Source: Candidatus Omnitrophota bacterium
GTDB lineage: Bacteria; Omnitrophota; Gorgyraeia; Gygaellales; Profunditerraquicolaceae
Assembly (NCBI GenBank): GCA_016783715.1
Contig: JADHWA010000001.1
Coordinates: forward strand, 118 to 64,117
Direction of reading: 5' to 3'
DNA: 64,000 nucleotides
A program made the position numbers and the translations under genes. Shown piece by piece: positions 4,943 to 54,405 of this stretch. The notes under the pieces are model-generated. The model searched no databases. It worked only from the letters and a program-made list of their open reading frames with translations, and was not told the origin of the DNA. How positions within the stretch are numbered: the stretch's first letter is position 1; each line of letters opens with the position of its first letter.

Positions 4943-5120
4943 TTAATGAGCGCATAACTTAGCGAAGCTAAGTTATAGCGTCCGTTATTTTACTTGTATA
5001 TAAGCGTGCGCGAATTAACCCAGCACTTATTTGGCATGTGCTTAGCATTCAACAAATAAGTGCTGGGCAAATTCCCCCGCACCCAAACAAGTAGTAGTAT
5101 ACACTTGACTGGGTGCGGGG
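4943..5120. repeat. type-A three-hairpin intergenic repeat element (fills the prmC stop to murA start spacer)
   Basis: hairpins ATAACTTAGC-GAA-GCTAAGTTAT, CCCAGCACTTATTTG..CAAATAAGTGCTGGG, CCCCGCACCCA..TGGGTGCGGGG; linker GCGAATTAA; termini AATGAG / TCATTT. Confidence 0.7.
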
Positions 5121-5948
5121 TCATTTGACCTTTTGCGCTATAATGATTCTCTCTATATTATTATAATCTCTAATTATCCTATAAACAGAAAAATCTTTCC
5201 TCTTTTTTAAAATACTCTCTACGGGCCTCCTCTGATTCAACCCGATCTCCAGGGCCAGAAACCCACCTGGCTGGAGATGTTTTAAGGAGCCAGCGATTAT
5301 CCTGCGATAAAAGTCTAATCCATCCCTGCCGCCATCTAAGCCAATACGCGGTTCATAACCAATCTCAGACGCCAAATTATCGATCTCTCCAGAGACAATA
5401 TAAGGCGGATTACTGACAATAATGTCGCATGTCGCATGTCGCATGTCGCATGTCGCAAACAAATCAGATTGGATAAACTCTATCCTTTTATCTACATAGT
5501 GCAAAGAGGCGTTATTTTTGGCTACTTCAAGCGCTTTCTCTGAAATATCAGTAGCGGTTATTGCTACCTGTGGTAATAATTTAGCCAGCGATACCGCAAT
5601 ACATCCCGAACCGGTACCTATCTCTAAGATCCTCCTACGATTAGCGATATGCGATAAGCGATTAGCTAACTTTATTATTGCTTCTACTAAAAGTTCTGTT
5701 TCCGGACGCGGGATAACCACTCCGGGATTTACCTTAAATTCAAAGCCCATAAATTCCTGTTTACCTAATATATACTGCAGGGGCTCACCTTTGGCTCTTC
5801 GTTTTAGAACAGAAGAGATCAAGCGCAATTGACTCTTATTAGGGGCCGGAGGTCTGCGGCTATAGAGGTCAATGCGATTGCACTTTAGAACATCGGTAAA
5901 TAATAATTCAGCTTCGTTCACCCAGCCTTTCCTCCTACTTGTACCCAA
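5121..5948 (-). CDS. prmC: release factor glutamine N5-methyltransferase
   Basis: IVSNPPYI motif, AdoMet-binding GTGSG; start uncertain (TTG as called; the N-terminus lies in a tandem repeat). Confidence 0.8.
   Translation of the reverse strand: MGTSRRKGWVNEAELLFTDVLKCNRIDLYSRRPPAPNKSQLRLISSVLKRRAKGEPLQYILGKQEFMGFEFKVNPGVVIPRPETELLVEAIIKLANRLSHIANRRRILEIGTGSGCIAVSLAKLLPQVAITATDISEKALEVAKNNASLHYVDKRIEFIQSDLFATCDMRHATCDIIVSNPPYIVSGEIDNLASEIGYEPRIGLDGGRDGLDFYRRIIAGSLKHLQPGGFLALEIGLNQRRPVESILKKRKDFSVYRIIRDYNNIERIIIAQKVK
5422..5456. repeat. heptamer microsatellite (ATGTCGC)x5 inside prmC coding sequence
   Basis: perfect 5 copies; encodes ATCDMRHATCD just before NPPY. Confidence 0.85.
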
Positions 5949-6043
5949 CCCTTTGGAAAGGCTGGGTCCTCCTACTTGTACCCAACCCTTTAGAAGGGCT
6001 GGGTCCTCCTATTTGTTTCCCAGTCCTTTATGAAGGGCTGGGT
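5931..6043. repeat. tandem repeat, 3 copies of 37-39 bp (CCTCCTACTTGTACCCAACCCTTTGGAAAGGCTGGGT) spanning the prfA stop and prmC start
   Basis: units at 5931-5967, 5968-6004, 6005-6043; the third unit encodes the prfA C-terminus. Confidence 0.8.
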
Positions 6044-7106
6044 CCTCTGCTGCCTTGATCAGAGCCAGAGAGACCTCATCAAGATCACCATCAAGCACTG
6101 CTTCTAATCGATGTATGGTAAAATTAATCCGATGGTCAGTAACCCGGCGGTCCGGAAAATTATAGGTACGGATCTTCTCGCTGCGATCCCCGGTACCGAT
6201 CTGTGAACGCCTCTCCTGGGAGACCTTCTTAGATTCCTCATGTTGTTTGGCATCCAGTAGGCGGGCGCGCAGTATACGCATTGCCCTAACTTTGTTTTTT
6301 CCCTGAGAACGCTCATCCTGACAGGCTACTACCGTACCGGTGGGGATATAGGTAATTCTCACTGCCGAATCAGTCTTTTGCATATGTTGGCCGCCGGGGC
6401 CGCTGGAGCGGTAAGTATCGATCCTCAGATCTTTGGCATCGATCTTTAAGTCTACTTCCTTAGGCTCAACCAGCACCGCTACCGTGGCCGTAGAGGTATG
6501 TATCCTCCCCTGCGCTTCGGTAACCGGAACACGCTGCACCCGGTGGACACCGCTTTCAAATTTAAGCCTCTTATAGGCATTCGGCCCTTTTACGCTAAAA
6601 GATACGTCTTTAAATCCCCCTGACTCATTGGTACTAGCTGACATCAACTCGACCTTCCACCCTTTATTGGCGGCATATTTTGTATACATCCGGTAAAGAT
6701 CAGCGGCAAATAGACCAGCCTCGTTTCCTCCGGTCCCCTGCCTGATCTCAACGATCAGATCCCTGCCCAAATCCTTGTCTTCTCCGGAAAGCATCTTCTT
6801 CAGGCGCTGCTGGAGGTCAACCCTCTTATTATTTAATTCCTCCGTCTCCTTTCGGGCCAGCTCCAGAAATTCTTCATCATGCTTCTCCTCTAAAACCTTT
6901 GCCAGATCGAGGATCTCGGCCGACACCCGCTGATACTCTAGAAACAACGCTACCGGCCCCCTAAGAGAAGCCATCTCCTTTGCGTATTTATTACACTCCT
7001 CCCTGTTTGAAATCACCTCAGGAGAAACTAAGAGCGCTTCCAGTTCCTGATATCTTTTTTTCATTGTTTCCAGCTGCTCGAACATAATAGTAAAACTCCC
7101 TGGCAC
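6009..7106 (-). CDS. prfA: peptide chain release factor 1
   Basis: GGQ motif ([10 protein letters not shown]), PVT tripeptide region, RF1 length. Confidence 0.9.
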
Positions 7107-7133
7107 CTACCTACTATCTACTAACTACTGATT

Positions 7134-7343
7134 TTAGTCTTTCTTTTTCTTCCCATATTTCTTCATATATTTATCTACCCGGCCTGCTGAATCAACGAAT
7201 TTCTGCTTACCGGTAAAGAAGGGGTGGCAGTTGGAGCAGACCTCCACTCTGATGTTCGGTTTTGTCGAGCGGGTATGTATGGTATTCCCGCAGGCACAGA
7301 CCACTACGCTATCCTGGTATTTTGGGTGAATCTTATCTTTCAT
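7134..7343 (-). CDS. rpmE: 50S ribosomal protein L31
   Basis: MKDKIHPKY..Cxx[14 protein letters not shown]. Confidence 0.85.
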
Positions 7344-7353
7344 TTTAACCTCC

Positions 7354-7476
7354 TAAATGAGTCCCGCAAATGTGGGACGAATTTTTGAGCACAACGCTCG
7401 TTTCTGTTTAGCGAAATCCCGCAAGCGCGGGGATCCCGCGTCCGCCGTTGCTCAGATATCTCGGACGGGGGATCTT
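7354..7476. repeat. type-B two-hairpin repeat element (rho stop to rpmE start)
   Basis: TAAATGAG + GTCCCGC..GTGGGAC + GAATTTTT .. CCCGCAAGCGCGGG .. GGGGGATCT. Confidence 0.55.
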
Positions 7477-7486
7477 TCTTCTTTTT

Positions 7487-8743
7487 TTACTGGTTCATAC
7501 TGTTTAAAAACTCTTCATTATTCTTTGTTTTACTCAGCTTGTCGATCAAAAGCTCCATTGCCTCGACATTATTTAATTCATTAAGCACCTTTCTTAAGAT
7601 CCAGGCCTTCTGCAGGATATCAGGCTTAAGCAGCAGCTCCTCATGACGGGTATTGGAGCGCTTGATATCGATTGCAGGATAGATCCTCCTCTGGAATAAA
7701 TTCCTATCCAGCTGCAATTCCATATTGCCGGTACCTTTGAATTCCTCAAAGATAACCTCATCCATACGGCTGCCGGTGTCCACCAGAGCTGTGGCGATGA
7801 TGGTCAGACTCCCCCCCTCCTCGACTGCGCGCGCAGCACCGAAGAAACGCTTAGGCTTCTGCAGGGCATTGGAATCTATACCTCCGGATAACACCTTACC
7901 GCTATGCGGGATAACCGAGTTGTATGCCCGGGCTAAGCGGGTAATACTATCCAGGAGGATTACTACATCCCGCTTATGCTCAACCAGTCTCTTGGCTTTC
8001 TCTAATACAACCTCGGCAACCTGAACATGCCTCTCCGGCGGCTCATCGAAAGTGGAAGATATGACTTCCCCCTTGACGCTTCGCTGCATATCGGTAACCT
8101 CCTCCGGACGTTCATCGATTAACAGGACTATCAGAATACAATCGGGATTATTATTCACTATAGCGTTGCCGAGCTTCTGCAATAAAACGGTCTTGCCGCT
8201 GTAGGGCTGTGCGACGATCAGTCCGCGCTGCCCCTTCCCGATAGGAGTCAAGAGATCCATGATCCGCATCGAGGTCTCTTTGGGGGTAGTCTCTAAGACA
8301 AAATTTTCCCTCGGGTAGATAGGCGTAAGGTTATCAAAGAGGATCTTATCTTTTGATTCTTCGGGATTCTCGAAATTCACCGCCTGGACCTTAAGCAGGG
8401 CAAAGTACTTCTCTCCCTCTTTCGGAGGACGTATCTCACCGCTTACGGTATCACCGGTCTTAAGGTCGAATTTCCTTATCTGCGAAGGTGATATGTATAT
8501 ATCGTCCGGGCAGGGCAGGTAATTGTAGTTAGGAGAGCGCAGGAAACCAAACCCCTCAGGAAGGATCTCTAAGATCCCCTCTCCGAACATCAGGCCTTCT
8601 TTTTCTGCCTGCCCCTGAAGGATCTTAAAGATCAGCTCCTGTTTTTTCAGTCCGCTTATTCCGTTTACACTGAGCTCTTTGGCGCGTTTATTGAGCTCGG
8701 TTATCTTCATATCTTTTAACTTTTGGATATCTAATTTTTCCAC
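7487..8743 (-). CDS. rho: transcription termination factor Rho
   Basis: N-terminal rho domain, Walker A GKT, RecA-like core; GTG start with AGGAGG 6 nt upstream. Confidence 0.9.
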
Positions 8744-9345
8744 AGTTTCCTCCTGATTTTACCTACTTGAAGTTTCGTCTTTTTTATCGATCCGTTATTA
8801 TCTATTACAAAATCCGCCATGCGGACCTTACAGGATAAAGGGATCTGTCTCTTGGCCCTCTTTAGAATTTGGTAGTGATTAAGCCCAGACCTGCTTTTGG
8901 CTCTCTTGAGCTGCTCGGCTTCCCCTATGTCTACAACAACCAGCCGGTCAACTTCATTATGCAACCCTGCCTCGATTAGAAGCGGGGCATCCAGAATAAT
9001 TTTTGGCTTTTTACAGGCGCGAATCTCTTCTTTAATGCTCTTGATCACCTCAGGATGCACTGCCCTATTAAGCTTATCTATGGTCTTCTTACTTATAAAG
9101 GCTTTCTCTGCAAGTTTGCGCCGGTCTATACTGCCGTCTTTCCTAAGAATGCCCTTACCAAAAGAAGAGATGATTCTCCTATAGCAGGCCTCCCCCGGTT
9201 TAGTCAGCCGGCGGGCGATCCTGTCTGCATCAATCACCAGGACATCCGGTGCCGCCAGCAGCTCTGTGACGGTGGTCTTCCCGCTAGAGAAACCCCCGGT
9301 TACCCCGACGATAGTCTTCTTCTTAGCCCTTTTACACCCTCTCAT
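8731..9345 (-). CDS. coaE: dephospho-CoA kinase
   Basis: [15 protein letters not shown]-loop; the track start at 9390 would overlap glgA by 59 nt; internal ATG at 9345 preferred. Confidence 0.75.
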
Positions 9346-10711
9346 ACAGCTCCAGGTATTGTCTCGCCGCTTCATCCCAGGAAAAATCATATTTCATGAC
9401 TTTTTTAACCAGTGTCTCCCATCCCGGTTTATCTGCGTAAGCACTAATCGCTCTCTGTATGGCCTCAACTAATCCCTCTTGATCATATCTATCAAAGACA
9501 AATCCGTTCTCCGGGCTAACGGTATCGGCCAGGCCTCCGGTTTTAAAGACCAAAGGAAGAGTGCCGTATCGAAAACTGATCAACTGGCTCAATCCGCAAG
9601 GTTCATACTTCGATGGCATCAGGAATAAGTCGCTGCCGGCATAGACTTTATGCGACAGGGGATTATCGAATCCCGGACGCAGGCAAAATTTTCCCGGATA
9701 TCTTTTGGCCAGCTTCTCTAAGACAGGATAATAATTTAGCTCCGGCATGCCTAGCACCACTAGCTGCAGATCCATCCCGCAGATCTGATCAATGGCCTTA
9801 ATCAACAGATCAATCCCTTTCTGCCCGGTGAGCCTGGATACCATACCGAACAACGGTAGATCAGCCCTAATATTAAGACCACAAGCCCTCTGCAGATCCT
9901 CTTTATCTTTACTCTTGCCTTCAAGATTATCCGATAGATAAGTGCTGGCGATATATTTATCGTTCTTTGGATCCCAGATAGAGTAATCTACGCCGTTTAA
10001 AATACCTATCAATGAACTCCTGTGTTTCTTCAAAACTTCCGCTAACCCAGCCCCATATTCTTCTGTCTGGATTTCCCGGCTATAGGTAGCGCTAACAGTA
10101 CTTATTGCATCGCAATACTCTATCCCACCTTTAAGCAGATTAAGCCTACCATCAAACTCTAAACCTCCCGGACCAAGCAGGCGTTCAGGAAGGCCTAACT
10201 TAGGGAACTCCTGCTTAGGAAACTGCCCCTGATATACAACATTGTGTATTGTTAATACGGTCTTTGCCTGCTTAAAAAACTCCTCCCGGGCATATAATTC
10301 CTTAAGAAAGATAGCAATCAGGCAGGTATGCCAATCGTGCAAATGGATAATCTCAGGCTGAAAATCTATCTCCTTCAATAAAGCAATAGTTCTCCTCGAA
10401 TAATACAAGAATCTATCAAGGTTATCCTTATAATCCTGATCTACGTCACCATAGATACCATCCCGATCAAAAAACTTTTTACTCTCAACAAAATAGACCT
10501 TTGTAGCCTTACCGATATTCGCCACTGATATATCCGGACTCAGACTCTCAATCTTTATCCCTGCGCTGCCTTCATCCTTATAACCGGGGACCACCACAAC
10601 TACCTGACACCCTTGCTTCTCTAATGCCACAGGCAGCGCCCCTAACACATCGGCAAGGCCGCCGACCTTAGAAAATGGCACCATCTCCGCAGCACACATT
10701 ACTACCTTCAT
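9332..10711 (-). CDS. glgA: glycogen (starch) synthase
   Basis: MKVVMCAAEMVPFSKVGGLADV GT5 N-terminus, GT1 C-terminal domain. Confidence 0.8.
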   Translation of the reverse strand: MKVVMCAAEMVPFSKVGGLADVLGALPVALEKQGCQVVVVVPGYKDEGSAGIKIESLSPDISVANIGKATKVYFVESKKFFDRDGIYGDVDQDYKDNLDRFLYYSRRTIALLKEIDFQPEIIHLHDWHTCLIAIFLKELYAREEFFKQAKTVLTIHNVVYQGQFPKQEFPKLGLPERLLGPGGLEFDGRLNLLKGGIEYCDAISTVSATYSREIQTEEYGAGLAEVLKKHRSSLIGILNGVDYSIWDPKNDKYIASTYLSDNLEGKSKDKEDLQRACGLNIRADLPLFGMVSRLTGQKGIDLLIKAIDQICGMDLQLVVLGMPELNYYPVLEKLAKRYPGKFCLRPGFDNPLSHKVYAGSDLFLMPSKYEPCGLSQLISFRYGTLPLVFKTGGLADTVSPENGFVFDRYDQEGLVEAIQRAISAYADKPGWETLVKKVMKYDFSWDEAARQYLELYERV

Positions 10712-13242
10712 TTAACAGACTCCATCTCCAGCCAATTCTTACCTTTCTTTACCGTGACCGTTATCGGGACCTTCAACTTCAAAGCAGATTCCATCCGCTC
10801 TCTGATTAATTCTATAGATTCCTTAAGCTCATCCTGCGGCACCTCAAATACCAGCTCATCATGAACCTGAAGCAACATCGCAGTCTTTAATTTCTTCTCC
10901 TGTATTTGATGGTATATATTAACCATCGCTAATTTTATCAAGTCGCTTGCCGAACCCTGTATCGGAGTATTTACCGCCTGGCGTTCGCTAAGCGCTCGGA
11001 TAGCCATATTAGAGCTGTTTATCTCAGGCAGATACCTGCGCCTTCCCAGTATTGTAGTAACAAACCCTTCTTCTCTGGCTCTTGTTATCTGCTCCTCTAT
11101 ATATTCTTTTACTTTCGGATACCTGAGGAAATAGGCGTCGATAAACTGCTGGGCATCTTCGAACGATATATTCAAGTCGCGCGAGAGCCCGTATGCACTC
11201 AAGCCATAGACTATACCGAAGTTAATCCGTTTTGCTACTTCTCGCATCTGATCATCCACATCTGTCTCCTTGATATCGTAAATCAAGGAAGCGGTGATCT
11301 TATGAATGTCTTTGCCGTCTCTGAAGGCTTCAATCAGCCTCTGATCTCCACAGAGATGGGCCAAAATCCTTAGCTCAACCTGAGAATAATCACAGGAGAC
11401 AAGATCCCACCCGGCAGCCGAAACTATAACCGCACGCCTGATCTGACTGCCTAAATCTGTCCTGATAGGAAGATTCTGCAGATTGGGATTGGCAGAACTT
11501 AAGCGGCCGGTTTCTGTGCCGGTCTGCTTAAAAGACGTATGAATCCGGGAAGTCAACTTATCGGCCAATTCCGGAAGCGCATCAATATATGTGCTCTTTA
11601 ATTTCATCAGTTGGCGATACTCCAGCAACATAGCCGGCAGCTTGTGCTTTTTGGCCAGCTTTCTTAAAACCTCCTCATTGGTAGAAGGCCCGGTTTTAGT
11701 CTTTTTGACCACCGGCAGTTTCAATTTTTCAAAGAGGATCTCTCTTAATTGCTTCGGAGAGTTTATATTAAAATCGGTACCGCTTGTACTATAGATCTCC
11801 TTGGTCAATTTTTTTAGTTTTTTCCCTAAATCCTCCGAAAGCCCCTTAAGAACTTTCCGGTCGATCTTTATCCCGTTTATCTCCATCTGGGCCAGCACCT
11901 CTACCAGAGGCATCTCAATATCATAAAAAAGCTTATCTAACGATTTATTATGGAGCTCCTTCTCCAGTTTTTGCTTCAATCTGACTATCGCTGTGATTGA
12001 GGTTGCCGCCTCAACAGGAGCAGCGAATCTGGCCTGGAGATACTCCCAGGATATATCCTCCAGGTCAAAGGCGCCTCCGGAGGGATTTAGTAAATAAGCG
12101 GCGATCATGGTATCAAAATACATGCCCCCTAAATCAACGCCGCAATCTTTCAATTTAATCCTGGTGGTTTTCAAATCGTGGCCGGATTTTTTTATCGAGG
12201 AGTCTGAGAGCACCTTCTTTGTCTGGGCGCCTGGAGAATTTAGCTTAAAAATTTTATCCCCCAGAGAAAAAAACATCTCTTGATTATCGGCCAAATAAAG
12301 GAAAATCTCTTTTTCCTTAATTGCCAGGTCAGCAAAATCTTTATCCTTCAGGGTATCTACCTTGATATCACACCTTTTCTCTTGTACAGGCAAGCTCCTA
12401 AGCAGCGACTTGAACTCAAACTGTTTAAATAATTTAAAGAGTTCATCTAAATCCGGTTCCTCGACCCTGGTCTCTGCAATCCCTATCTTGATCTCAGGCC
12501 TGCTGCCTAACACCGCTAATTCTTTACTTAGGCGCAAAATCTTGATTTCAGCCTTAATGCTTTCTTTTAATTTTCCCTGCTTTAGGGTATCCAGATTCTT
12601 AATCAGGTTCTCCACGCTCCCAAACTCTTTGATCAGCTTAACAGCGGTCTTCTCTCCGATGCCGGAGACCCCCGGAATATTATCGGCATTATCCCCCATC
12701 AGGGCGATAATATCCGGTATCGCCGATGGTTTTATCCCATAACGCTGGATGACCTTATCTTCATCATAAAGCGTACCCTCATCCTTATAGGGGCTGAAGA
12801 CTTCTACATTTTTATTAACTAACTGCAGCATATCTTTATCTGAACTGACGATGGTTGTAGAGATACCCTGATCCCCGGCTTTCTTGGCTAAGGTAGCGAT
12901 GACATCATCTGCCTCAAACCCTTCCTTCTCCAATATGGCGATCCCGTAAGCAGAGATTATCCTCTTAATCCAGGGGATCTGGCTACCCAGCTCATCTGGC
13001 ATCGGTGGCCGCTGAATCTTATACTCCGCGAACTTCTTCTGGCGAAAAGTATCCCGGGAAACATCAAAACAGGCCGCCAGATATTCAGGCTTCTCTTCCT
13101 TTAGCATCTTATCCAATATCTTTACAAAACCGTATATGGCATTGGTTGGCTGCCCGCTGGATGTGCTTAAGTTTTGCAGGCCATAAAACGCCCGATAGCA
13201 AAAGCCTGTAGCGTCTATCAGATACAAACGTTTATTCTTCAT
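10708..13242 (-). CDS. polA: DNA polymerase I
   Basis: 5'-3' exonuclease N-terminus, family A polymerase motifs (DYSQIELR, QVHDELV). Confidence 0.9.
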   Translation of the reverse strand: MKNKRLYLIDATGFCYRAFYGLQNLSTSSGQPTNAIYGFVKILDKMLKEEKPEYLAACFDVSRDTFRQKKFAEYKIQRPPMPDELGSQIPWIKRIISAYGIAILEKEGFEADDVIATLAKKAGDQGISTTIVSSDKDMLQLVNKNVEVFSPYKDEGTLYDEDKVIQRYGIKPSAIPDIIALMGDNADNIPGVSGIGEKTAVKLIKEFGSVENLIKNLDTLKQGKLKESIKAEIKILRLSKELAVLGSRPEIKIGIAETRVEEPDLDELFKLFKQFEFKSLLRSLPVQEKRCDIKVDTLKDKDFADLAIKEKEIFLYLADNQEMFFSLGDKIFKLNSPGAQTKKVLSDSSIKKSGHDLKTTRIKLKDCGVDLGGMYFDTMIAAYLLNPSGGAFDLEDISWEYLQARFAAPVEAATSITAIVRLKQKLEKELHNKSLDKLFYDIEMPLVEVLAQMEINGIKIDRKVLKGLSEDLGKKLKKLTKEIYSTSGTDFNINSPKQLREILFEKLKLPVVKKTKTGPSTNEEVLRKLAKKHKLPAMLLEYRQLMKLKSTYIDALPELADKLTSRIHTSFKQTGTETGRLSSANPNLQNLPIRTDLGSQIRRAVIVSAAGWDLVSCDYSQVELRILAHLCGDQRLIEAFRDGKDIHKITASLIYDIKETDVDDQMREVAKRINFGIVYGLSAYGLSRDLNISFEDAQQFIDAYFLRYPKVKEYIEEQITRAREEGFVTTILGRRRYLPEINSSNMAIRALSERQAVNTPIQGSASDLIKLAMVNIYHQIQEKKLKTAMLLQVHDELVFEVPQDELKESIELIRERMESALKLKVPITVTVKKGKNWLEMESVK

Positions 13243-13297
13243 TGATTAATTCAATGGATTTCATTTTCGCGGCAGGAAAAATTTGCTTTGCGGTCTT

Positions 13298-14107: not shown

Positions 14108-14119
14108 TTATTTGATTTT

Positions 14120-14147
14120 ATTATACATCCGAATACTGTATGGTCAA
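14120..14147 (-). promoter_or_regulatory. sigma70-like promoter candidate (TTGACC-16-TATAAT) for the TPR gene
   Basis: the -10 lies 12 nt upstream of the ATG; the -35 overlaps the first repeat of the upstream array. Confidence 0.5.
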
Positions 14148-14300
14148 GGAAAATTTACCTCTGGTAACAAGGAATTTTCCTTGATCTTGAGCAACGGAAG
14201 AGCGAAAGATCTCAAGGAAAATCTACACCTACATAGCCCCTCTCTCCTTGATCTCGAGGAGCAAAAGCGACGAGAGATCTCAAGGAAAATTTACCTCTGG
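14142..14300. promoter_or_regulatory. 68-bp periodic repeat array: TCAAGGAAAAT(T/C)TAC at 14144, 14212 and 14280, with inverted partners (CAAGGAATTTTCCTTGA, CCTTGATCTCGAGG)
   Basis: direct repeats exactly 68 bp apart, each with a dyad half-site; sits immediately upstream of and overlapping the -35. Confidence 0.55.
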
Positions 14301-14309
14301 AGACAGAGA

Positions 14310-17748: not shown

Positions 17749-18194
17749 ACTTTAACCTCTGCTTCCTCACACCAGATGATCGCCCCTGTTGGACAGGCCT
17801 TCACGCATGCCGGTTCATCCTTATCCTGGCATTTATCGCAACGGATAGCCAGTTTTGTCAAAATATTTGGTCTTATCGCCCCGTATGGACAGGACATCAC
17901 GCACATCCAGCATCCTACACAGCGCTCCTGGTCATAGACAACCATATCTTTCTGGTCATCACGATATAATGCTGCGGCCATACAGGCATCAACGCATTTA
18001 GGCTCTTTACAATGCCTGCAGGAGACAGGATAATTATTACCCTTGCTGGAGTGGACTTTTTTTCTGGGTAAAGATTTCTTCTCTTCCTTAATCGCCTTAA
18101 ATATATCCTGGGTTAGCGAGTGTGCCAGGCTACAGGCGAGCTCGCAGGACTTGCATCCTAAACATTTTTTTACATCATAATAAAGCTTCTTCAT
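17745..18194 (-). CDS. cooF: CODH-associated 4Fe-4S ferredoxin
   Basis: four CxxCxxCxxxCP clusters; the track N-terminus MRSF arises from the repeat element, likely start MKKLYY at 18194. Confidence 0.75.
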   Translation of the reverse strand: MKKLYYDVKKCLGCKSCELACSLAHSLTQDIFKAIKEEKKSLPRKKVHSSKGNNYPVSCRHCKEPKCVDACMAAALYRDDQKDMVVYDQERCVGCWMCVMSCPYGAIRPNILTKLAIRCDKCQDKDEPACVKACPTGAIIWCEEAEVKV

Positions 18195-18296
18195 AAATGA
18201 ACGCATAACTTACGATCCGCCGCAGGCGGAGAGTAAGTTATATGCGTGAATTTATTCCCGGGCTCTGGTGGTGCGCAAAGGAAGCCCGGGAATCTC
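18194..18296. repeat. type-B two-hairpin repeat element (cooS stop to cooF start)
   Basis: TAAATGAACGCATAACTTAC..GTAAGTTATATGCGTGAATTTATTCCCGGGCT..AGCCCGGGAATCT. Confidence 0.7.
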
Positions 18297-18308
18297 CTAC
18301 TTATCAAT

Positions 18309-26249: not shown

Positions 26250-26327
26250 AATTTTTTAGTAGATAGTATGTAGTAGTTAGGGTTTAGGGTGACTTTTTCC
26301 TTCCTACCCCTACATTCTACCTACTAT

Positions 26328-27437
<1,110 letters not shown>

Positions 27438-37248: not shown

Positions 37249-37260
37249 TAGAACTCCTTC

Positions 37261-37345
37261 AATGAACACATAACTTAGCGAGTAATAGCGAAGCTAAGTT
37301 ATAAGTGTGAATTGAATCCGCCAGGCTTTGTGGCGGATAAATGTT
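37261..37345. repeat. type-B repeat element (proS 3' end to rimP start)
   Basis: AATGAACACATAACTTAGCG..CGAAGCTAAGTTATAAGTGTGAATTGAATCCGCC..GGCGGATAAATG; the second hairpin is inside proS coding sequence. Confidence 0.65.
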
Positions 37346-38567: not shown

Positions 38568-38614
38568 ATTTTAATTGAAGCTCTCAAAAAATTCTTAAAC
38601 CTACAGAGCTTTCT

Positions 38615-38676
38615 GATTACACAGATTAGAGTTAGATTACACAGATTAAACCTTTGATGAATTAATCTGTGTAATC
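38615..38676. repeat. GATTACA-box element (between the CpaF-like ATPase and proS)
   Basis: GATTACACAGATTA x2 direct, TAATCTGTGTAATC inverted (14-bp TIR-like). Confidence 0.7.
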
Positions 38677-38711
38677 GGTTTCTCTTAATCTTTTAATCAT
38701 ATGATTTTTTA

Positions 38712-39974: not shown

Positions 39975-39975
39975 C

Positions 39976-44777: not shown

Positions 44778-44801
44778 AATAAGTCTAGAGTCGGTTTTAA
44801 C

Positions 44802-44830
44802 AAAAAAGGGGATATTCTATCCCCTTTTTT
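44802..44830 (-). terminator. rho-independent terminator (bidirectional dyad AAAAAAGGGGATATTCTATCCCCTTTTTT)
   Basis: perfect 7-bp GC stem flanked by A6 and T6; sits after the coiled-coil gene and before uppS. Confidence 0.65.
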
Positions 44831-44871
44831 AAAAAATTAGAGGCAGCTTTTGTAATATCTGGCGGCCTAGG

Positions 44872-45246: not shown

Positions 45247-45273
45247 CAGATACCCTTCTTGTTTTTAACTATA

Positions 45274-45900: not shown

Positions 45901-45952
45901 CTACTAACCTCCTGTGTTCTATAATGTTATTAAAAATTTCGGTTGGAGCTTA

Positions 45953-45981
45953 ACTATAACATAATCAATAGGTTTAGTCAA
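45953..45981 (-). promoter_or_regulatory. sigma70-like promoter candidate (TTGACT-17-TATAGT) for the OmpA-like / coiled-coil operon
   Basis: read on the minus strand; AGGAGG RBS follows. Confidence 0.45.
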
Positions 45982-46002
45982 GAGCTAAATTTTTACCTGA
46001 AG

Positions 46003-47286
<1,284 letters not shown>

Positions 47287-48522
47287 TTAAGGATTAACGC
47301 TGAATATCTTGCGCGCAATATCAGGATGCCTGGCGATAAACTTCAACTCCTCGTCGACCAGTGGTTTCTGATTATGGACATTGGCGTAACGTACAAGCTC
47401 TAGGACCTCTGTAGCCTCCTGGTCATTGTGAAATGCCACCTCTAATTTTTCATAGACATTACGGAACCCCTTGATCCCTGAATACTCTCCGGCTGTGATT
47501 TTGCGGCCGGTCTCAACGACTTCCGGCTCTCCGCGGCCCAGCTCTTCATAATCATACAGCTCATAGTTTCTTCTGTCTTTGAGTGCACCGTCGGCATGTA
47601 TTCCGGATTCATGTGCAAAAGCGTTGGCACCGATCCCCGGCTGATTAATCGGTATTGGCACCCCGAATGCATAAGAGGCATATTTACAACTCTTCCATGC
47701 CTTTTTGAGATTTATTCCTTCATCCAGTTTATAACTGGCCATACCGCTGCCGTGCTTAACTGCTAAAATTACCGAAACTAAATCCGCGTTTCCTGCGCGC
47801 TCCCCCATACCGTTGACACAGGTGTTGATATAGGCATCGCATCCGCAATCAACAGCCGCCCTTGCTCCGGCGATCGAATTTGCCACCACCAGTCCTAAAT
47901 CATTATGGCAGTGAATTTCAATCGGCAGTGAAATTGCCTTAGCCAGGGCCTTGATCCGCTGGTATATCGAAAAAGGCGTATCACATCCTAAGGTATCGCA
48001 ATAGCGGACTCTCTTGGCTCCTGCTTTTTTGGCAGCCCGGGCAAACTTTATAAGATATTTTAAGTCTGTCCTTGATGCATCTTCTGCATTGACGCCTATA
48101 CTCTCTACGCCCAACTCTATCGCCTCACTTACCGCCTGAACCATCGTCTTAATTACCAGAGAGTGGTCCAGCTTACCTTTAAACTTATGGAGGATCATCT
48201 GGTCAGAGGTAGAAATAGACAGATTTACATTCTTCAAGGACGGCACCAGCGATAAGCCACCCCTGACATCATCGACAGTAGCCCGCATCCATCCTCCAAG
48301 CCTGATTGGGCTCAATACGCCTTTCTCTGCTAATTCCAGATTTGCGTTCAGGTAATTTGTCTCATGGTGCGTCAGGGGAAAACCAAACTCGGACTGAAAG
48401 ACCCCCATCTGATTAAGGTGTATATTCAGCATGGTCTTCTGCAGCTTAGATAGGCAGATACGCGAAGTCTGTACTCCGTCACGATTAGTAACATCGATTA
48501 AATAAATTTTAGCTTTCTTCAT
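47287..48522 (-). CDS. HMGL-like aldolase of the isopropylmalate / homocitrate / citramalate synthase family (short form, no regulatory domain)
   Basis: IDVTNRDGVQ, HCHNDLG, TCVNGMGERAGN motifs. Confidence 0.65.
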   Translation of the reverse strand: MKKAKIYLIDVTNRDGVQTSRICLSKLQKTMLNIHLNQMGVFQSEFGFPLTHHETNYLNANLELAEKGVLSPIRLGGWMRATVDDVRGGLSLVPSLKNVNLSISTSDQMILHKFKGKLDHSLVIKTMVQAVSEAIELGVESIGVNAEDASRTDLKYLIKFARAAKKAGAKRVRYCDTLGCDTPFSIYQRIKALAKAISLPIEIHCHNDLGLVVANSIAGARAAVDCGCDAYINTCVNGMGERAGNADLVSVILAVKHGSGMASYKLDEGINLKKAWKSCKYASYAFGVPIPINQPGIGANAFAHESGIHADGALKDRRNYELYDYEELGRGEPEVVETGRKITAGEYSGIKGFRNVYEKLEVAFHNDQEATEVLELVRYANVHNQKPLVDEELKFIARHPDIARKIFSVNP

Positions 48523-48535
48523 AACAATCCTCCTT

Positions 48536-48720
48536 CAATGAGCAGATCCTTGACATCGGAGATGTCAAGGATAGCGTCAATCGTTTATCAGTCTATCAGC
48601 GTCTGCGAATTGAACCCAGCACTAATTTTGCTTCGGATCGTAAACTACAGAAAATTAGTGCTGGGTAAAATTCAGCCACCGAACTTACCTCGCTTACTCT
48701 CCGTAAGTTCGGGCTTCATT
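48536..48720. repeat. type-A three-hairpin repeat element (stop of the nucleotidase-like gene to leuA-like start)
   Basis: collinear with 4943-5120: linker AGCGTC..GCGTCTGCGAATTGAACCCAGCAC conserved, hairpin sequences swapped (CCTTGACATC../..GATGTCAAGG; CCGAACTTAC..GTAAGTTCGG). Confidence 0.7.
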
Positions 48721-50505
48721 TTACCTCCTGAATATTTTCTTGAATTCCTCTTGGCTGCCTGGGCCGCTGGTGCTGAAAATCTGCTGATTATCGATTAAGA
48801 ATGTAGGCCCGAACATAACCTGTAATTCACTATTAAGCCTGATGTTCTCGCTGAGCAAATCTCTTCCCTCCTGACTCCTGGCACAGTCTCTGACCCGGGA
48901 GACGTCGCATTCACCCGATAGACACTCCTCCCACCAGGAGCTGTTGATATTTTTTGCCCGGCAGATTATATAATCCCAGAAATCCTGCGGACACCAAGTT
49001 TTGACACAGAGGCTGCGCAGATACTCCTCGATCTCACCGGTGCCACCGGCAGAATCGAATTTACCCTCTAGCTCGGTGGCCAGGAAGTGAATCCGGGGAT
49101 CAAAACTCCTGGTTGCTTCTAATATAGACGATGAATACTTATTGTAGAGGCTTATGAATAGGTCAAGGCCCCCGGATATTTTCTTCCTGTTGATATAATA
49201 GGATACGCCCGAGAATTCCGGTTTAAGTATTAGAAACTCATCCCCCTCGACGAACTTCTCTCTTAAGGCCCCAAAATTAGGCTCTTCGACGATCTCTTTC
49301 TCAAAGATAAAGGCCGGCAGAGTCTGGATATCCAGCTCGGCGACTATTTTCCTGGCTTGCCTTTGGGGATAGACAAGCTTAGAAGTAGTTACCCCTGGAA
49401 ATGTCTCTTCAAGATAAGTAATACTCCCGGCTGCATTAAACAACTCCCTTCTCTTGGGTTCAATTACCCAGAGCTTAACCTCCCCGGCAGGAGTAAATTC
49501 ACACTTAGCATCTGAAGTGCCCGGATTACCACAGGAGGCAATACTTCCTTTCTTCTTGCAATCGTTATCCCTGAAACACTGCGGCAGGACAGATTTAATC
49601 TCAGGATCGTCCCTAAACTTCTTGGTCAGTTCTATATCTTCGCTCTTTACATCTGTTATCCGGCCTGCCTCTATCTCCAGGGTAACCTTGCCTAAACTTC
49701 TGGCCTGCCAGGAAGGCTGTAAGATTATGGTGGAACTCTCTTCTGCCGTAAGGTCCTTCTCCATCCTGTTGTATCTGGTTATAAGTAGATCTACCCCCGG
49801 CACCTTCTTGACTAACTCCAGATCTTCACCCGGATCCAGCCGGCTCAAAAGTATGATTACTCCGACCTGATTATCTTTTAGCTGCTTAATCGTATCCCGG
49901 AGCGCTTCTTGGGGGGCGCTGACGCTGACACCGGATACTCTTCTGGCTATCCTGGGAGCTGATATGCCGATAATCCCCACCTTGACACTGCCGACTTGCT
50001 TGATAATAAAAGGATGAATCTTATCAAGCTTAACATTGCATGATACAAGCGGGAATTTATTCTCGTCGGAGAATTTTGTAAAGAACTCTTTCCCGAAGCC
50101 AAACTCATCCTCTCCGATACAGGCAGCGGTATACCCCATCAATTGCATCGCCCTGATATTGGCCAGTGTTCTCTCTTTATCAAGCCGGGAATTCTGCGCG
50201 TATTCATCTTGTGGTCCCCCGGCAAAAAAAGATCCCGAATCAAGTAATAAGGCATCAGGAGCCTGCTTTCTGATCTGCTTTACCAGCGTAGACCTACGGG
50301 CTAAACCCCCGTTTCGCTCGTGCGGGCAGTCACAAGGGTATAGCATCGCGTGAGTGTCGCCGGTATATAAAATTGTAATTTCCTCCGCGAAAGAGAGCGA
50401 AAAGTTCAAAACGCAAAGTGCAAAACTAAAACTTAAAGCTAAAAGCTTTACACTTTTAACTTCACCTTTGCGCTCTGCGCTTTGCGCTTTGCGCTTATTT
50501 ATCAT
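48721..50505 (-). CDS. secreted calcineurin-like metallophosphoesterase / 5'-nucleotidase-family protein with Cys-rich and DsbA-like C-terminal extension
   Basis: signal peptide; GDTHA metallophosphatase motifs; C-terminal GPTFLIDNQ resembles a thioredoxin-fold cis-Pro loop; many Cys. Confidence 0.55.
   Translation of the reverse strand: MINKRKAQSAERKGEVKSVKLLALSFSFALCVLNFSLSFAEEITILYTGDTHAMLYPCDCPHERNGGLARRSTLVKQIRKQAPDALLLDSGSFFAGGPQDEYAQNSRLDKERTLANIRAMQLMGYTAACIGEDEFGFGKEFFTKFSDENKFPLVSCNVKLDKIHPFIIKQVGSVKVGIIGISAPRIARRVSGVSVSAPQEALRDTIKQLKDNQVGVIILLSRLDPGEDLELVKKVPGVDLLITRYNRMEKDLTAEESSTIILQPSWQARSLGKVTLEIEAGRITDVKSEDIELTKKFRDDPEIKSVLPQCFRDNDCKKKGSIASCGNPGTSDAKCEFTPAGEVKLWVIEPKRRELFNAAGSITYLEETFPGVTTSKLVYPQRQARKIVAELDIQTLPAFIFEKEIVEEPNFGALREKFVEGDEFLILKPEFSGVSYYINRKKISGGLDLFISLYNKYSSSILEATRSFDPRIHFLATELEGKFDSAGGTGEIEEYLRSLCVKTWCPQDFWDYIICRAKNINSSWWEECLSGECDVSRVRDCARSQEGRDLLSENIRLNSELQVMFGPTFLIDNQQIFSTSGPGSQEEFKKIFRR
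50467..50494. repeat. heptamer microsatellite (TTTGCGC / TCTGCGC)x4 at codons 5-13 of the nucleotidase-like gene
   Basis: 4 copies, 1 variant; encodes KRKAQSAERK. Confidence 0.7.
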
Positions 50506-52088
50506 ATTTTTATCGCCCTAACCTCTAGAATATTCTTGATCTTTTTGAGCTGTTTTAGGATATCCGCGGAAACCGGGGTATCGATATTCAAAACTGATAT
50601 TGACTTACCGCCGGGTTTATCCCGTCCGAAGGTCATTGCCGCAATATTAATATTGTGTTTAGCCAGCATACTCCCGAGATTTCCGATAATGCCGGGCAAA
50701 TCCCGGTTATGAATAACCAGCATAACCCCGCCAGGGGAAACCTCTACATAATAATTGTTGATCTTTACGATGCGCGGCTTCTTGTTTGCCGAAAGTGTCC
50801 CGGAGACCTTAAGTGTCTCCTTATCGGTCTTGATCTCCAATTCAACCAGAGTCACAAACTCCTGCTCTTTTGACAGCCTGGATTCCTTAATCGTAATACC
50901 CCTGCCGCTGGCAAGGCTGGTGGCATTGATAAAATTAACCGTCTCCTGTAATATAGGAAAGAGGACCCCTCTGACCGCAGCCATAGTCAAGGGGCTAAGC
51001 TCATATGTAGCTATCTCTCCGCCATAGCTTATATTTACCGTTTCTATCCTCCCGACTGCCAACTGCCCGCAGAAGTTACCTAATTTCTCCGCCAGGCTGA
51101 TATAGGGCTCTAGAACCTTGTATACCTCTGCCTCAAGACAGGGATAATTTGCCGCATTTCTGATTCCTTTTCCCAAGAGGGCATCGCGGACGATCTCTGC
51201 TACTTCGACTGCGACATTGACCTGTGCCTCCTCTGTAGAAGCGCCCAGGTGCGGGGTAACTACGATATTCTCCTGCTGTAAGAGCTGGCTATCTGCGGAT
51301 AACGGCTCCTTCTCGAAGACATCAATCGCCGCACCAGCTACTTTTTTGCTCTTGACTGCCTCAACCAGTGCTTTCTCATCGATAATTCCGCCCCGGGCGC
51401 AATTAACCAGCCGGACCCCGTCTTTCATTAAAGCAAATTCCTTGGTAGAGATCATATGTTTAGTCTCTTCGGTTAAAGGGGTATGCACGCTAATATAGTC
51501 GGAGCGCTTAAATAAATCCTTGAGCTCTACGATCTCAACGCCTAAGCTTTCAGCGACCTGCTTGGATAAAAAGGGATCATAGGCCAAGATCTTCATCCCG
51601 AATGATAAGGCCCTTTTAGCCACCTCTGAACCTATGCGTCCGAAACCGACTACTCCCAAGACCTTATTGTAAACCTCCACCCCCATGAATTTAGAGCGGT
51701 TCCATTCTCCTTTTTGCATAGAGGCATTTGCTTGAGGGATATTACGGGAGAGTGAAAGGATCATACTCATGGTATGCTCGGCGGTAGACATGGTATTCCC
51801 CGCCGGGGTATTCATCACGATAATCCCCTTTTGGGTTGCCGCTGCCAAATCTACATTATCTAATCCTACTCCGGCGCGGCCGATAACTTTCAGATTCCCT
51901 GCTGCCTCAATAACCTCTCTGGTTACCTTTGTGGCAGAGCGCACGATCAAGGCATCATAATCCTTTATCACCTTTACAAGCTGCTCGGGTGTCAACCCGG
52001 TATTGACATCAACCTTAAAGTCCTTCACCTCTTTTAAGACTTTAAGGCCGTTTTCAGACAGTTTATCGCTGACCAATATATTCATCAT
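50502..52088 (-). CDS. serA: D-3-phosphoglycerate dehydrogenase (with ACT domain)
   Basis: 2-hydroxyacid dehydrogenase GxGxxG, long C-terminal ASB/ACT. Confidence 0.85.
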   Translation of the reverse strand: MMNILVSDKLSENGLKVLKEVKDFKVDVNTGLTPEQLVKVIKDYDALIVRSATKVTREVIEAAGNLKVIGRAGVGLDNVDLAAATQKGIIVMNTPAGNTMSTAEHTMSMILSLSRNIPQANASMQKGEWNRSKFMGVEVYNKVLGVVGFGRIGSEVAKRALSFGMKILAYDPFLSKQVAESLGVEIVELKDLFKRSDYISVHTPLTEETKHMISTKEFALMKDGVRLVNCARGGIIDEKALVEAVKSKKVAGAAIDVFEKEPLSADSQLLQQENIVVTPHLGASTEEAQVNVAVEVAEIVRDALLGKGIRNAANYPCLEAEVYKVLEPYISLAEKLGNFCGQLAVGRIETVNISYGGEIATYELSPLTMAAVRGVLFPILQETVNFINATSLASGRGITIKESRLSKEQEFVTLVELEIKTDKETLKVSGTLSANKKPRIVKINNYYVEVSPGGVMLVIHNRDLPGIIGNLGSMLAKHNINIAAMTFGRDKPGGKSISVLNIDTPVSADILKQLKKIKNILEVRAIKI

Positions 52089-52117
52089 CCTACACTCCTT
52101 TAATGTTCCTGCAAAAA

Positions 52118-52232
52118 ACTCTAAACCCTAAATCCTAAACCCTAAATAAAATCCTAAATCCAAAACTCAAATTATTAAAAATAAAACTTTGGGTTTGTTT
52201 AGAGTTTAGTGTTTCGAACTTAGGATTTAAAA
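52118..52232. repeat. CCCTAAA-type heptamer repeats plus long imperfect inverted repeat between the serC-like gene and serA
   Basis: AACTCTAAACCCTAAATCCTAAACCCTAAAT.. pairs with ..GTTTAGAGTTTAG..TTAGGATTTAAA. Confidence 0.6.
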
Positions 52233-52235
52233 TCA

Positions 52236-53381
52236 TTATTCACCTTGCAAAAAGACTTCTTCGGCGGCTCGGACACCCGCGCCTAACTCGAATTTGTACC
52301 CCATCTGAGTAAGAACCTTCTCTAAGCAGCAGATACCGGCAATAATATCGAGCTCCTCAATAAAACCCATGTGGGCGATACGGAATATCTTTCCTTTAAG
52401 CTGGGCCTGTCCGCCGGCGATAGTTACCCCGTATTGATCGCGCATGGTCTTAACTAACTTTTCACCGTCTATCCCTTCGGGAACCCTTACGGCGGTTACC
52501 GCATCCGAGGCAGCATCGACACTGAGTAATTCCAGCCCTAAGGCCTTCATCGCCGTACGGGTGGCAACTGCCAGCCTCTTATGACGTGTAAAGATATTCT
52601 CTAATCCGTCTTTGCGCATAATCTTCAGGGCTTCCTTTAATGCAATCACCAGAGTAATCGCCGGAGTAAAGGCGGTATCAAACTTATCCAGCGCCTTCTT
52701 GGCGGCCTTTAAATTAAAATAGTATGCAGCAGCCTTATTGCCGTCTATTATCCCCCATGCTTTTTTTGAGACGCTCATAAAGGCAAGCCCTGGAGGAAGC
52801 ATTAATCCTTTTTGTGACCCTGAAACACAGATATCTACACCCCAGGCATCGGTCTTCATATCAATCGCTCCTAATCCGCTGATCGCATCTACGACTAACG
52901 CTGCCTGAGCCCCCTTGGCGATCTTGCCTATAGCCTGGATATCCGTTGTGACACCTGTAGAGGTCTCACAGAGTGTAGTGAACACCGCCTTAATCTTGGG
53001 ATTAGCCTTTAATTTTTTTTCTATCTCTTTGGGATCGACCGCCTGGCCCCACTCTACATCAATAACCTCCGCATTTATTCCGTAGGCCTTGGCAATCTCT
53101 GCCCATCTCTCGCCGAATTTTCCGCCCTGAACTGTTAAAACCGTATCCCCTTTGGAGGCCAGGTTCACAACCGCTGCCTCCATAGCTCCGGTGCCCGAAG
53201 ATGTCAATACAAAACAGTCATTTGCGGTCTGGAAGATAACTTTTAGCCCCTCACAGACCTCTTTGAATATCTCCTGGAAGTCAGGTGTGCGGTGATGGAT
53301 TATCGGCTGTGCCTGCGAGAGAAGCACCTCAGGAGGCAATGGCGTTGGCCCAGGCGTCAATAAATATTTCTTTTTCATCAT
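52236..53381 (-). CDS. class-V aminotransferase (phosphoserine or serine-glyoxylate type), probable SerC function
   Basis: PGPTPLPPEVL N-terminus, PLP-lysine region; adjacent to serA. Confidence 0.65.
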   Translation of the reverse strand: MMKKKYLLTPGPTPLPPEVLLSQAQPIIHHRTPDFQEIFKEVCEGLKVIFQTANDCFVLTSSGTGAMEAAVVNLASKGDTVLTVQGGKFGERWAEIAKAYGINAEVIDVEWGQAVDPKEIEKKLKANPKIKAVFTTLCETSTGVTTDIQAIGKIAKGAQAALVVDAISGLGAIDMKTDAWGVDICVSGSQKGLMLPPGLAFMSVSKKAWGIIDGNKAAAYYFNLKAAKKALDKFDTAFTPAITLVIALKEALKIMRKDGLENIFTRHKRLAVATRTAMKALGLELLSVDAASDAVTAVRVPEGIDGEKLVKTMRDQYGVTIAGGQAQLKGKIFRIAHMGFIEELDIIAGICCLEKVLTQMGYKFELGAGVRAAEEVFLQGE

Positions 53382-53394
53382 TACTATTCTCCTT

Positions 53395-53526
53395 CAATAA
53401 GCTGACCCAGCCCTTGCATGCAAGGGCGGGGTAGCATCTATTGTTTACCAATCTATTAAGCGTCTGCGCATTGAACCCAGCACCCAGTCTAGTATTTATA
53501 TTACTTGTTTGGGTGCGGGGTCATTT
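53395..53526. repeat. type-A repeat element (upstream of the serC-like gene)
   Basis: GTTTACCAATCTATTAAGCGTCTGCGCATTGAACCCAGCAC block about 85% identical to 48582-48625; ends GGGTGCGGGGTCATTT as at 5103-5120. Confidence 0.7.
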
Positions 53527-53555
53527 ACTTCTTCTTTTTCATATGAGCTATTACT

Positions 53556-53655
53556 TAAATGAGCACATCACTTAGCGAGCACTAGCGAAGCTAAGTGATA
53601 AGTGCGAATTAATCCCGGGACTCCATATCTTAATATGCGGAGGCCAGGGATCTTC
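53556..53655. repeat. type-B two-hairpin repeat element flanked by the 31-bp duplicated clpP 3' end
   Basis: TAAATGAGCACATCACTTAGCG..CGAAGCTAAGTGATAAGTGCGAATTAATCCCGGGACTCC..GGAGGCCAGGGATCT; the stem carries the compensatory pair AACT>CACT / AGTT>AGTG. Confidence 0.7.
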
Positions 53656-53662
53656 TCGTATT

Positions 53663-54277
53663 CTACTTCTTTTTCTTCATATGAGCTATTACTTCGTCTA
53701 CCAGCCCATAGGTCTTGGCTTCTTCTGCAGACATAAAATAATCCCTGTCAGTGTCCTTCTGAATCTTCTCCAGAGATTGTCCGGTATGCTGTGCGAGGAT
53801 CTGGTTAATCTTATCTTTCATTTTTAGTATTTCTTTGGCCTGTATCGATATGTCCGATGCCGCCCCCTGTACTCCGCCCCATGGTTGATGAATCATAACC
53901 CGCGAATTCGGCAGGGTATGGCGTTTCCCCTTGGTCCCGGCAGATAAAAGTAATGCCCCCATACTGGCAGCCTGGCCTACGCAGTAGGTAGCTACGTCAC
54001 ATTTTACAAACTGCATAGTATCGTATACCGCAAGACCTGCAGTCACCGAACCGCCGGGGGAATTTATATATATATTGATATCTTTATTTACATCTTCCAT
54101 CTGCAGAAAAAGCATCTGCGCGATAATCAGATTAGCTACGGTATCGTCAATCGGGGTACCGATAAAAACAATCCTGTCTTTTAGCAGGCGTGAATAGATA
54201 TCGTATGCCCGCTCATATCCCCGTGCAGTCTGCTCAATCACCATCGGAACTAAGACCTGCGCTTTTTCGCTACTCAT
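53663..54277 (-). CDS. clpP: ATP-dependent Clp protease proteolytic subunit
   Basis: Ser-His-Asp triad context [11 protein letters not shown]; the track N-terminal extension is rejected and the start is the ATG at 54277 (AGGAGG upstream). Confidence 0.9.
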
Positions 54278-54288
54278 CCTACACCTCC

Positions 54289-54405
54289 TAAATGAGCCCC
54301 GCCCTTTTTTACCAATAAACAAATTATATTTTTTTAAGGTACAAAAGAGCGGGGCGAATTTATCCCGGGCAGCCATTTTTCCTTTCGTCAGCTGCGTGGG
54401 ATCTC
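54289..54405. repeat. type-B two-hairpin repeat element (tig stop to clpP start)
   Basis: TAAATGAGCCCCGCCCTTTT..AAAAGAGCGGGGCGAATTTATCCCGGGCAGCC..GCTGCGTGGGATCTC. Confidence 0.6.

Follow-up and report, generated by a model that had tools for sequence, protein, structure and literature searches.

Gene setting and copies of the element in the window

The window analysed here is a stretch of 64,000 nucleotides from Candidatus Omnitrophota bacterium (assembly GCA_016783715.1, contig JADHWA010000001.1, positions 118 to 64,117). Its long open reading frames (ORFs) are all located on the minus strand and correspond to housekeeping genes: trp genes, murA, prmC, prfA, rpmE, rho, polA and Wood-Ljungdahl genes, together with proS-rimP-nusA-infB, tig-clpP and others. 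About 13% of the gene junctions of the window are occupied by a single family of hairpin-forming intergenic repeats, the flanking genes being functionally unrelated to one another. We found that the full element is made of two inverted units around a central hairpin, that it is present in at least 29 species-level genomes, and that it is probably a mobile DNA related in kind to REPINs, bacterial interspersed mosaic elements (BIMEs) and miniature inverted-repeat transposable elements (MITEs).

The original prediction, made from the letters alone, was that eight spacers share a modular element, and the motifs that it listed were found at all eight. A covariance model of the unit, R1, matched the 64-kb window only at these loci, and a structural scan for AATGA … GAATT, with the requirement that the flanks be complementary, retrieved nine units in the window compared with 0.3 expected from Markov shuffles. 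The eight loci together carry 9-10 units, and three of the copies are full or degenerate full elements (4942-5128, 48534-48723 and 53393-53527) while five are short. The order of the modules had to be corrected, the genes being on the minus strand: on the mRNA strand it reads stop, unit, CCC..GGG hairpin, unit, CTCATT, an optional Shine-Dalgarno (SD) sequence and ATG. On the transcribed strand, every copy shows the upstream stop, hairpins, a TTAATTC-type linker, a last hairpin, (G/A)YGCTCATT, and an SD or the ATG.

All copies are given here in window coordinates and belong to the minus strand. The full three-hairpin element between prmC and murA (4942-5128), detected by motifs, structural scan and R1, is composed of a 5' unit (5067-5128) with the inner stem CCCCGCACCC, a central hairpin (5020-5066, CCAGCAC..GTGCTGG) and a 3' unit (4942-5019) with the ATAACTTAGC stem and an extra insert. 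The prmC stop TGA, at 5121-5123, is within the element, the murA ATG is at 4940-4938, and the copy is identical in another assembly. The full element between a 594-aa gene and an HMGL/leuA-like gene (48534-48723) was detected by the same three approaches and by orthologue comparison, an orthologous copy being present in the related locus L066. Its 5' unit (48666-48723) contains the stop of the upstream gene within the terminal GGTAAAATGA, its central hairpin (48615-48665) starts with CCCAGCACTAATTTT.., and its 3' unit (48534-48614) exhibits the variant frame TTCAAT-TC-GCAGACGC...CTGC-TC-ATTGAA with a swapped inner hairpin. Upstream of a class-V aminotransferase gene, motifs and orthologue comparison identified a degenerate full element (53393-53527), with a 3' unit variant (53393-53475), a TCATTTAC end (53521-53527) and, between them, a single fused hairpin (53476-53520), in which a deletion has brought the 5' unit and the central hairpin together.

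The short form corresponds to AGATCC-hairpin-GGGAT plus one unit. Between rho and rpmE (7353-7476; motifs, structural scan, R1 at 19.4 bits) the unit is minimal (7353-7386, AAATGA-GTCCCGC..GTGGGAC-GAATTT), with further hairpins beyond it up to the AGATCC end at 7476, and the SD and ATG of rpmE directly follow CTCATTTAG. Between a CODH gene and a cooF-like gene (18193-18296; motifs, structural scan, R1) the unit (18193-18255) is followed by a CCCGGG hairpin (18256-18296), and the cooF-like ATG at 18194, without SD, overlaps the outer stem (CATTTATG). The proS-rimP copy (37258-37345; motifs, R1 at 78 bits), with its unit at 37258-37316 and its hairpin at 37317-37345, is identical in other assemblies. 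The proS frame runs 47 nt into it (37299-37345), the element encoding the last ~15 proS codons and the stop (37299-37301), and the SD and ATG (37248) of rimP come after TTCATTGAAGGAG. A copy located just past the clpP stop (53555-53654; motifs, R1, comparison of relatives) has a unit at 53555-53613 and a CCCGGG hairpin at 53614-53654. The tig-clpP copy (54288-54405; motifs, R1, empty sites in relatives) has a unit with a GCCCCGC stem and a long AT loop (54288-54363) and a hairpin at 54364-54405, and the SD and ATG (54277) of clpP follow CTCATTTAGGAGG.

Structure and covariation of the repeated unit

The building block of the family is an imperfect palindrome of ~58 nt, NN-AAT-GA-(4 bp)-(10 bp)-loop-(10 bp)-AA-(4 bp)-GA-ATT-NN, with for example GCAC as the 4-bp helix, ATCACTTAGC as the 10-bp helix and GCGAAC..AGTGAAGC as the loop; its reverse complement reads AATTC…TCATT. 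The AAATGA and TCATTT motifs, first described as two separate termini, are indeed present and belong to inverted copies of this unit, whose outer stems they form. The stem replacements cited at the same time (ATAACTTAGC, ATCACTTAGC and CATAACTTAC) are real compensatory changes and were generalised across the 61 units from which R1 was built.

In these 61 units, the 20 modelled pairs were 95.4% paired and 14 of them had changed on both sides, with a covariation score that was reached by 0 of 500 shuffles, and sliding the partner as a control lowered the pairing to 20-33%. The 4-bp helix and a portion of the outer helix were search conditions of the structural scan, and the inner 10-bp helix was left free; this inner helix was 97.5% paired, with seven pairs showing changes on both sides. 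When the alignment was chosen by the right-arm 21-mer alone, the outer pairs 2-77 and 3-76 covaried (TCT/AGA, TTC/GAA, TAA/TTA). The covariance modelling and covariation check suggested with the original prediction gave support beyond chance.

The non-Watson-Crick cells of the 95 model matches comprised 27 A·C and 26 G·U, compared with 1,708 Watson-Crick cells; of the total of about 1,800 cells, 95% were strictly Watson-Crick. As the G·U count equals that of A·C, no strand-specific wobble tolerance is seen and a classical RNA structure fits less well; the pairing constraint looks like that of a DNA-level palindrome, or of templated correction, rather than a wobble-tolerant selection on RNA. 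The better fit is a palindrome in the DNA that is either under selection or repaired through intrastrand templating. The folding z-scores of the 48.5-kb copy were -5.3 (sense RNA) and -7.8 (DNA).

The pairs of units showed the paired inverted arrangement of REPINs, with 29 convergent pairs (23-261 nt apart), no divergent and two tandem pairs. The hairpin between paired units always has CCC at its start and GGG at its end and comes from a small repertoire common to several genomes (among others CCCAGCACTAATTTT.., CCCCTCACCCAGC.., CCCTTGACATC.., CCCCGCCC.., CCCCCCC..). The replicating entity is a composite in which two ~58-nt hairpin units, inverted relative to each other, surround this CCC…GGG hairpin; it is 140-380 nt and typically 155-190 nt long, and half-size derivatives exist.

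Distribution of the family

The 21-mer AATGARCRCATMACTTAGCGA was found exactly in 51 contigs of 29 species-representative genomes (metagenome-assembled genomes, MAGs), nearly all of them labelled Omnitrophota/Omnitrophica, Planctomycetia or PVC; one of the two outliers is merely a half-unit. R1 matched 95 units in 318 kb around the 51 contigs and no unit in 44 kb from L057-L062, six relatives with a Tig protein 59-66% identical. Judging by record labels, the family is confined to Omnitrophota and neighbouring PVC-group lineages, and the 51 contigs contradict the case, raised with the prediction, that only the eight copies of the window exist. The 21-mer was absent from IMG/VR viral contigs.

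The window is a contig of a MAG, and in L063, a related contig, an element contains an N-gap, which could point to chance resemblance or to an artefact of metagenome assembly. The same elements were, however, recovered from independent assemblies and samples, shuffles predicted 0.1-0.3 units in the window, and the family is present in 51 independent contigs of 29 genomes, so that this explanation can be considered excluded.

Rfam gave 0 matches over the window at the gathering score and no match on an element at E ≤ 1 in the region 48.4-54.5 kb, which contains four of the eight loci. Searches of the literature on Omnitrophota repeats retrieved no description of such a family, and the words intergenic, palindrome and hairpin are absent from a 2026 complete-genome preprint (bioRxiv 10.64898/2026.06.07.730766). 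As first supposed, the repeat family is apparently undescribed.

Position of the elements relative to stops and starts

The copies fill the spacers from stop to start, as predicted, the stop and start positions coinciding with the element ends. The stop of the inward-facing gene is within the terminal TAAATGA, either as TAA at -3 or as TGA at -7 from the element end. At the other end, the start codon is found 0-2 nt after …CTCATTNNN, or an SD follows at once with the ATG at +10 to +16. Among the 29 full elements, 20 are located between the stop and the start of co-directional genes. Reading inward, all three frames were closed in 74 of 95 units (78%; median 34 nt) versus 47 of 95 shuffles, and a gene entering from the hairpin side is extended, as for proS, which gained about 15 codons.

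The true starts of murA, the cooF-like gene and clpP are at 4940, 18194 and 54277. Their longest-ORF starts are over-extended, with ATGs inside or beyond the hairpins (4953-4955, 18204-18206 and 54277-54376), and ORF callers that take the longest ORF will extend genes into the elements in this way. Three genes next to elements had been thought to share an identical leader: two of them have TCATTGAAGGAG and the third has TTATTGAAGGAG. The absence of an SD at murA and cooF was likewise correct for the starts at 4940 and 18194, but it confers no special status on element-adjacent genes and was excluded as a property of them, SD-less starts being common in the lineage (11 of 18 genes of L001). Among the called genes of L001, L065 and L066, only about 40-70% have an SD that is recognisable at 18 nt or less from the start, and SD-less initiation appears to be common in this lineage. 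A relay mini-ORF for translational coupling, from the TAAATGAAG ATG to the far-end TAAATG, was considered and rejected: its length varied from 1 to 44 codons with no common end, and several element variants do not have the ATG.

GC-rich hairpins after stop codons could be ordinary terminators or attenuators, each specific to its gene and merely alike. The element hairpins have no T-run, being followed by TTAATTC or CATTAAA, and promoter and terminator scans stayed at chance level, the terminator scan giving no site at the elements. Moreover, the ~58-nt units, loops and linkers included, are common to 29 genomes, and copies are found directly before start codons and inside ribosomal-protein operons of other genomes (rplF; rpsM-rpsK-rpsD), besides adjoining rho, rpmE, clpP and murA. 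The terminator explanation is therefore very improbable, and shared sequence and absent T-tracts bear out the argument already made against it. In L025 (395-1322) and L044 (6088-7989), elements bracket rplF and the rpsM-rpsK-rpsD block.

The elements are also reminiscent of integron attC sites. These sites, such as the Vibrio VCRs, are polar imperfect palindromes, 60-140 nt long, whose ends are conserved and whose centre varies, and they occupy the whole gap from one ORF to the next; the same features, with a fixed polarity in stop-to-start spacers, are found here. Recombination sites between gene cassettes are nevertheless most unlikely. The flanking genes are core, syntenic housekeeping genes (tig-clpP, rho-rpmE, proS-rimP-nusA-infB, trp genes), relatives without the element have the same gene order, the ends are AATGA/TCATT and not RYYYAAC/GTTRRRY, and no integrase was found in the window, the annotations covering most of its genes.

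Gain and remodelling of copies

At tig-clpP the element is present in the window as well as in L063, L064 and L067 (ClpP 97% identical); it is absent from L065 (ClpP 95% identical), where the spacer is 22 nt, and from L066 (ClpP 94%) and five more distant relatives, which have short spacers. The element lies directly against the pre-existing SD, and comparison of filled with empty tig-clpP sites revealed no target duplication. Between the window and L063, the hairpin module at this site is entirely different in an otherwise identical alignment of ~1.2 kb, the L063 hairpin resembling that of L067.

The short element after clpP is absent from L065-L067. On either side of it stands a copy of a 31-nt direct repeat derived from the 3' end of clpP (53526-53556 and 53664-53694), and the first copy, at 53526, keeps an ACGAGA remnant of a 5' unit. 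Because of this remnant, a tandem duplication of the gene end and element, later remodelled, fits better than a target-site duplication at 53526/53664, which was rejected, the repeat being a one-off. The 53393-53527 element is a fusion-deletion derivative of an intact three-hairpin copy present in L065-L067, and inner hairpins have been replaced in orthologous copies. A look-up at cooF for more strain polymorphism gave nothing.

At about 3800-3950 of L063, an N-run scaffold gap with duplicated flanks is located inside the aminotransferase-upstream element, which suggests that the element repeats break or confuse short-read assemblies.

Other intergenic repeats of the window

Other repeats were observed in the window. 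The aminotransferase-PGDH spacer (52089-52235) contains a long hairpin of TTTAGGG/CCCTAAA-like short repeats, whereas in L065-L067 this spacer measures just 2-36 nt. The hairpin represents a second class of inserted intergenic hairpin, unrelated to the family, and the tig-clpP spacer of L062 carries an analogous hairpin made of AACGAACTA repeats. Another repeat family of the genome is formed by GATTACACAGATTAA repeats, direct and inverted, that are clustered in three spacers (1140-1311, 38568-38711 and 55328-55457). An inverted and direct intergenic repeat set of AAATTTTCCTTGAGATC is located at 14108-14309, the spacers at 7107-7136 and 26250-26346 have common TAGTAGGTAG-type repeats, and a 37-39-nt repeat (CCCTTTGGAAAGGCTGGGTCCTC…) is present three times in tandem across the prfA/prmC junction (5930-6047).

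Relation to known repeats and origin of the elements

The family had been called REP/MITE-like, and its multi-copy, modular and hairpin-forming nature is supported by our data. We consider it probable that the elements are non-autonomous, palindromic, interspersed mobile DNA of the REPIN/BIME/MITE kind, co-transcribed with the genes and under partial constraint at their sites.

Neisseria Correia elements, pneumococcal BOX and RUP elements and other MITEs are interspersed repeats of 100-200 nt with inverted ends, located next to genes and co-transcribed, and BOX has a modular boxA-boxB-boxC structure. The elements described here share the size class, the gene-adjacent position, the modularity of BOX and the terminal inverted repeats (TAAATGA… / …TCATTTA, the ~58-nt units being mutually inverted). 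They differ by ends that are complete hairpins, by their conservation across many species, and in that no TA or other target duplication was detected. No autonomous parent insertion sequence with the same ends was seen in 2-20 kb around the matches, and none that has the ends of this family is known.

BIMEs are mosaic and modular, as the present elements are. With REPINs and BIMEs the family also shares two inverted palindromic units round a spacer, many extragenic copies and compensatory stem changes. It differs by units of ~58 nt, not 20-40 nt, with an (A)ATGA foot and a symmetric GA/GA internal loop, by a spacer that is a conserved-base CCC..GGG hairpin from a shared repertoire, and by a strong polarity relative to genes; no RAYT was found in the ~0.5 Mb of fetched loci. 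According to one account, the REP unit of BIMEs is a short imperfect palindrome of 20-40 nt with a GTAG or CGTC tag at one end (PMC3733652). The unit consensus contains neither tag on either strand, its foot being AATGA / GAATT, and falls outside that definition of REP. REPIN-RAYT systems are noted for their persistence and conservation across related species (PMC3116915), a point in common with the present family. Class 3 TnpA(Y1) proteins are found principally in Planctomycetes, Acidobacteria and Proteobacteria and are linked to repeated hairpins with a CnGA foot (PMC6006769). Planctomycetes belong to the PVC group and the foot of the unit is ATGA, but no class 3 gene was found in the ~0.5 Mb of fetched loci; the resemblance, one of description, serves as a lead.

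Several observations weigh against mobile DNA as the origin. A HUH/Y1 motif search in ~0.5 Mb of fetched loci (not whole genomes) gave no transposase or HUH…Y ORF, Pfam scans of element-bracketed ORFs and of about 30 window genes returned housekeeping families alone, and flank triplets and longer repeats were inconsistent as target-site duplications at 11 full elements. The exact conservation of the 21-mer in 29 species is unusual for MITEs. The AATGAAG-type unit is towards the stop and the AATGAGC-type unit towards the start in 19 of the 20 full elements located between co-directional genes, a polarity that a randomly inserting MITE would not display. The 5' unit of the 594-aa gene-HMGL element, a locus-specific variant, is identical at 56 of 58 positions (97%) between the window and L066, while the flanking genes show 55% identity at their 4-fold degenerate sites, a contrast that would not be expected of a purely selfish, decaying insertion.

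These last features would suit a host-functional intercistronic signal, the three-hairpin structure being selected in the mRNA for segmental stability, RNase processing or presentation of the downstream start, or as a DNA site for a protein or gyrase, with mobility being incidental or ancient. The same explanation draws on the framework of the 3' unit at this locus (38 of 43 positions identical, 88%), on the end types (AATGAAG at stops 12/12, AATGAGC at starts 18/21), and on the perfect double substitutions in orthologous stems, such as GAGAC/GTCTC to GAGGC/GCCTC or the variants TAACTTATG, CAATTTACG and TATTTTACG, each with its matching partner. The SD or ATG exactly abuts the hairpin foot, and copies are located in highly expressed operons. 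However, G·U is no commoner than A·C, the tig-clpP junction is element-free in close relatives and no unit was found in the 44 kb of another lineage, some short-form copies have the opposite orientation, such as the one after groEL in L049, strains differ by entire hairpins with unchanged flanks, and the flanking genes are functionally unrelated. A host signal as the primary nature of the family is thus possible but rather unlikely. Polarity and conservation in place nonetheless argue that many copies are more than junk, and they may have a role at the RNA level, in processing, stability or coupling.

If the elements are mobile DNA of the REPIN/BIME/MITE kind, their history may be pictured as follows. 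Copies are gained at gene boundaries, as the empty and filled orthologous sites show, and once there they have hairpin modules exchanged or deleted, as seen between strains and between species. Propagation would probably take place on hairpins extruded in single-stranded DNA, through a trans-acting enzyme reading the conserved frame AAT-GA…GA-ATT; the obvious candidate would be of the HUH/Y1 type (RAYT-like), although none was found. Tolerance in essential operons would come from the inward ends, which close the frames fast with the TAA and TGA of TAAATGA and, in 78% of the units, with a stop in the third frame after no more than about 34 nt, from the outward end, where the SD or ATG next to the hairpin is preserved, and from hairpins devoid of a T-run terminator. 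With frames closed, SD or ATG intact and no T-run, the elements would therefore be co-transcribed as three-hairpin intercistronic spacers. Because of the strong conservation in place and the fixed polarity, many copies may have acquired a secondary host role, for example as a barrier to 3'-exonucleases, as a site of processing or as a stretch of DNA bound by a protein.

A more speculative possibility, which we regard as improbable at present, is a domesticated operon punctuation, in which the conserved AAT-GA…GA-ATT scaffold would be under purifying selection at individual gene junctions and a dedicated enzyme acting on single-stranded DNA would insert and exchange hairpin cassettes. Were it true, strain-level hypervariability would arise inside essential operons with stop and start signals left intact. 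According to a 2026 preprint (bioRxiv 10.64898/2026.06.07.730766), 150 of 223 Omnitrophota chromosomes have unexplained hypervariable windows over their ribosomal-protein operons, and strain-level cassette swapping could contribute to these windows or cause them.

Omnitrophota is a large, uncultured and poorly understood phylum, and a dense repeat family is present in at least 29 species. The family shapes operon structure and gene ends, supplying the proS C-terminus and several stop codons, and it probably affects assembly breaks and strain variation as well. It gives a lead towards an enzyme that would read the AAT-GA…GA-ATT frame. With insertion polymorphism, conservation in place far above the neutral level and fixed polarity combined, it offers a good system for studying how selfish palindromes become host signals.

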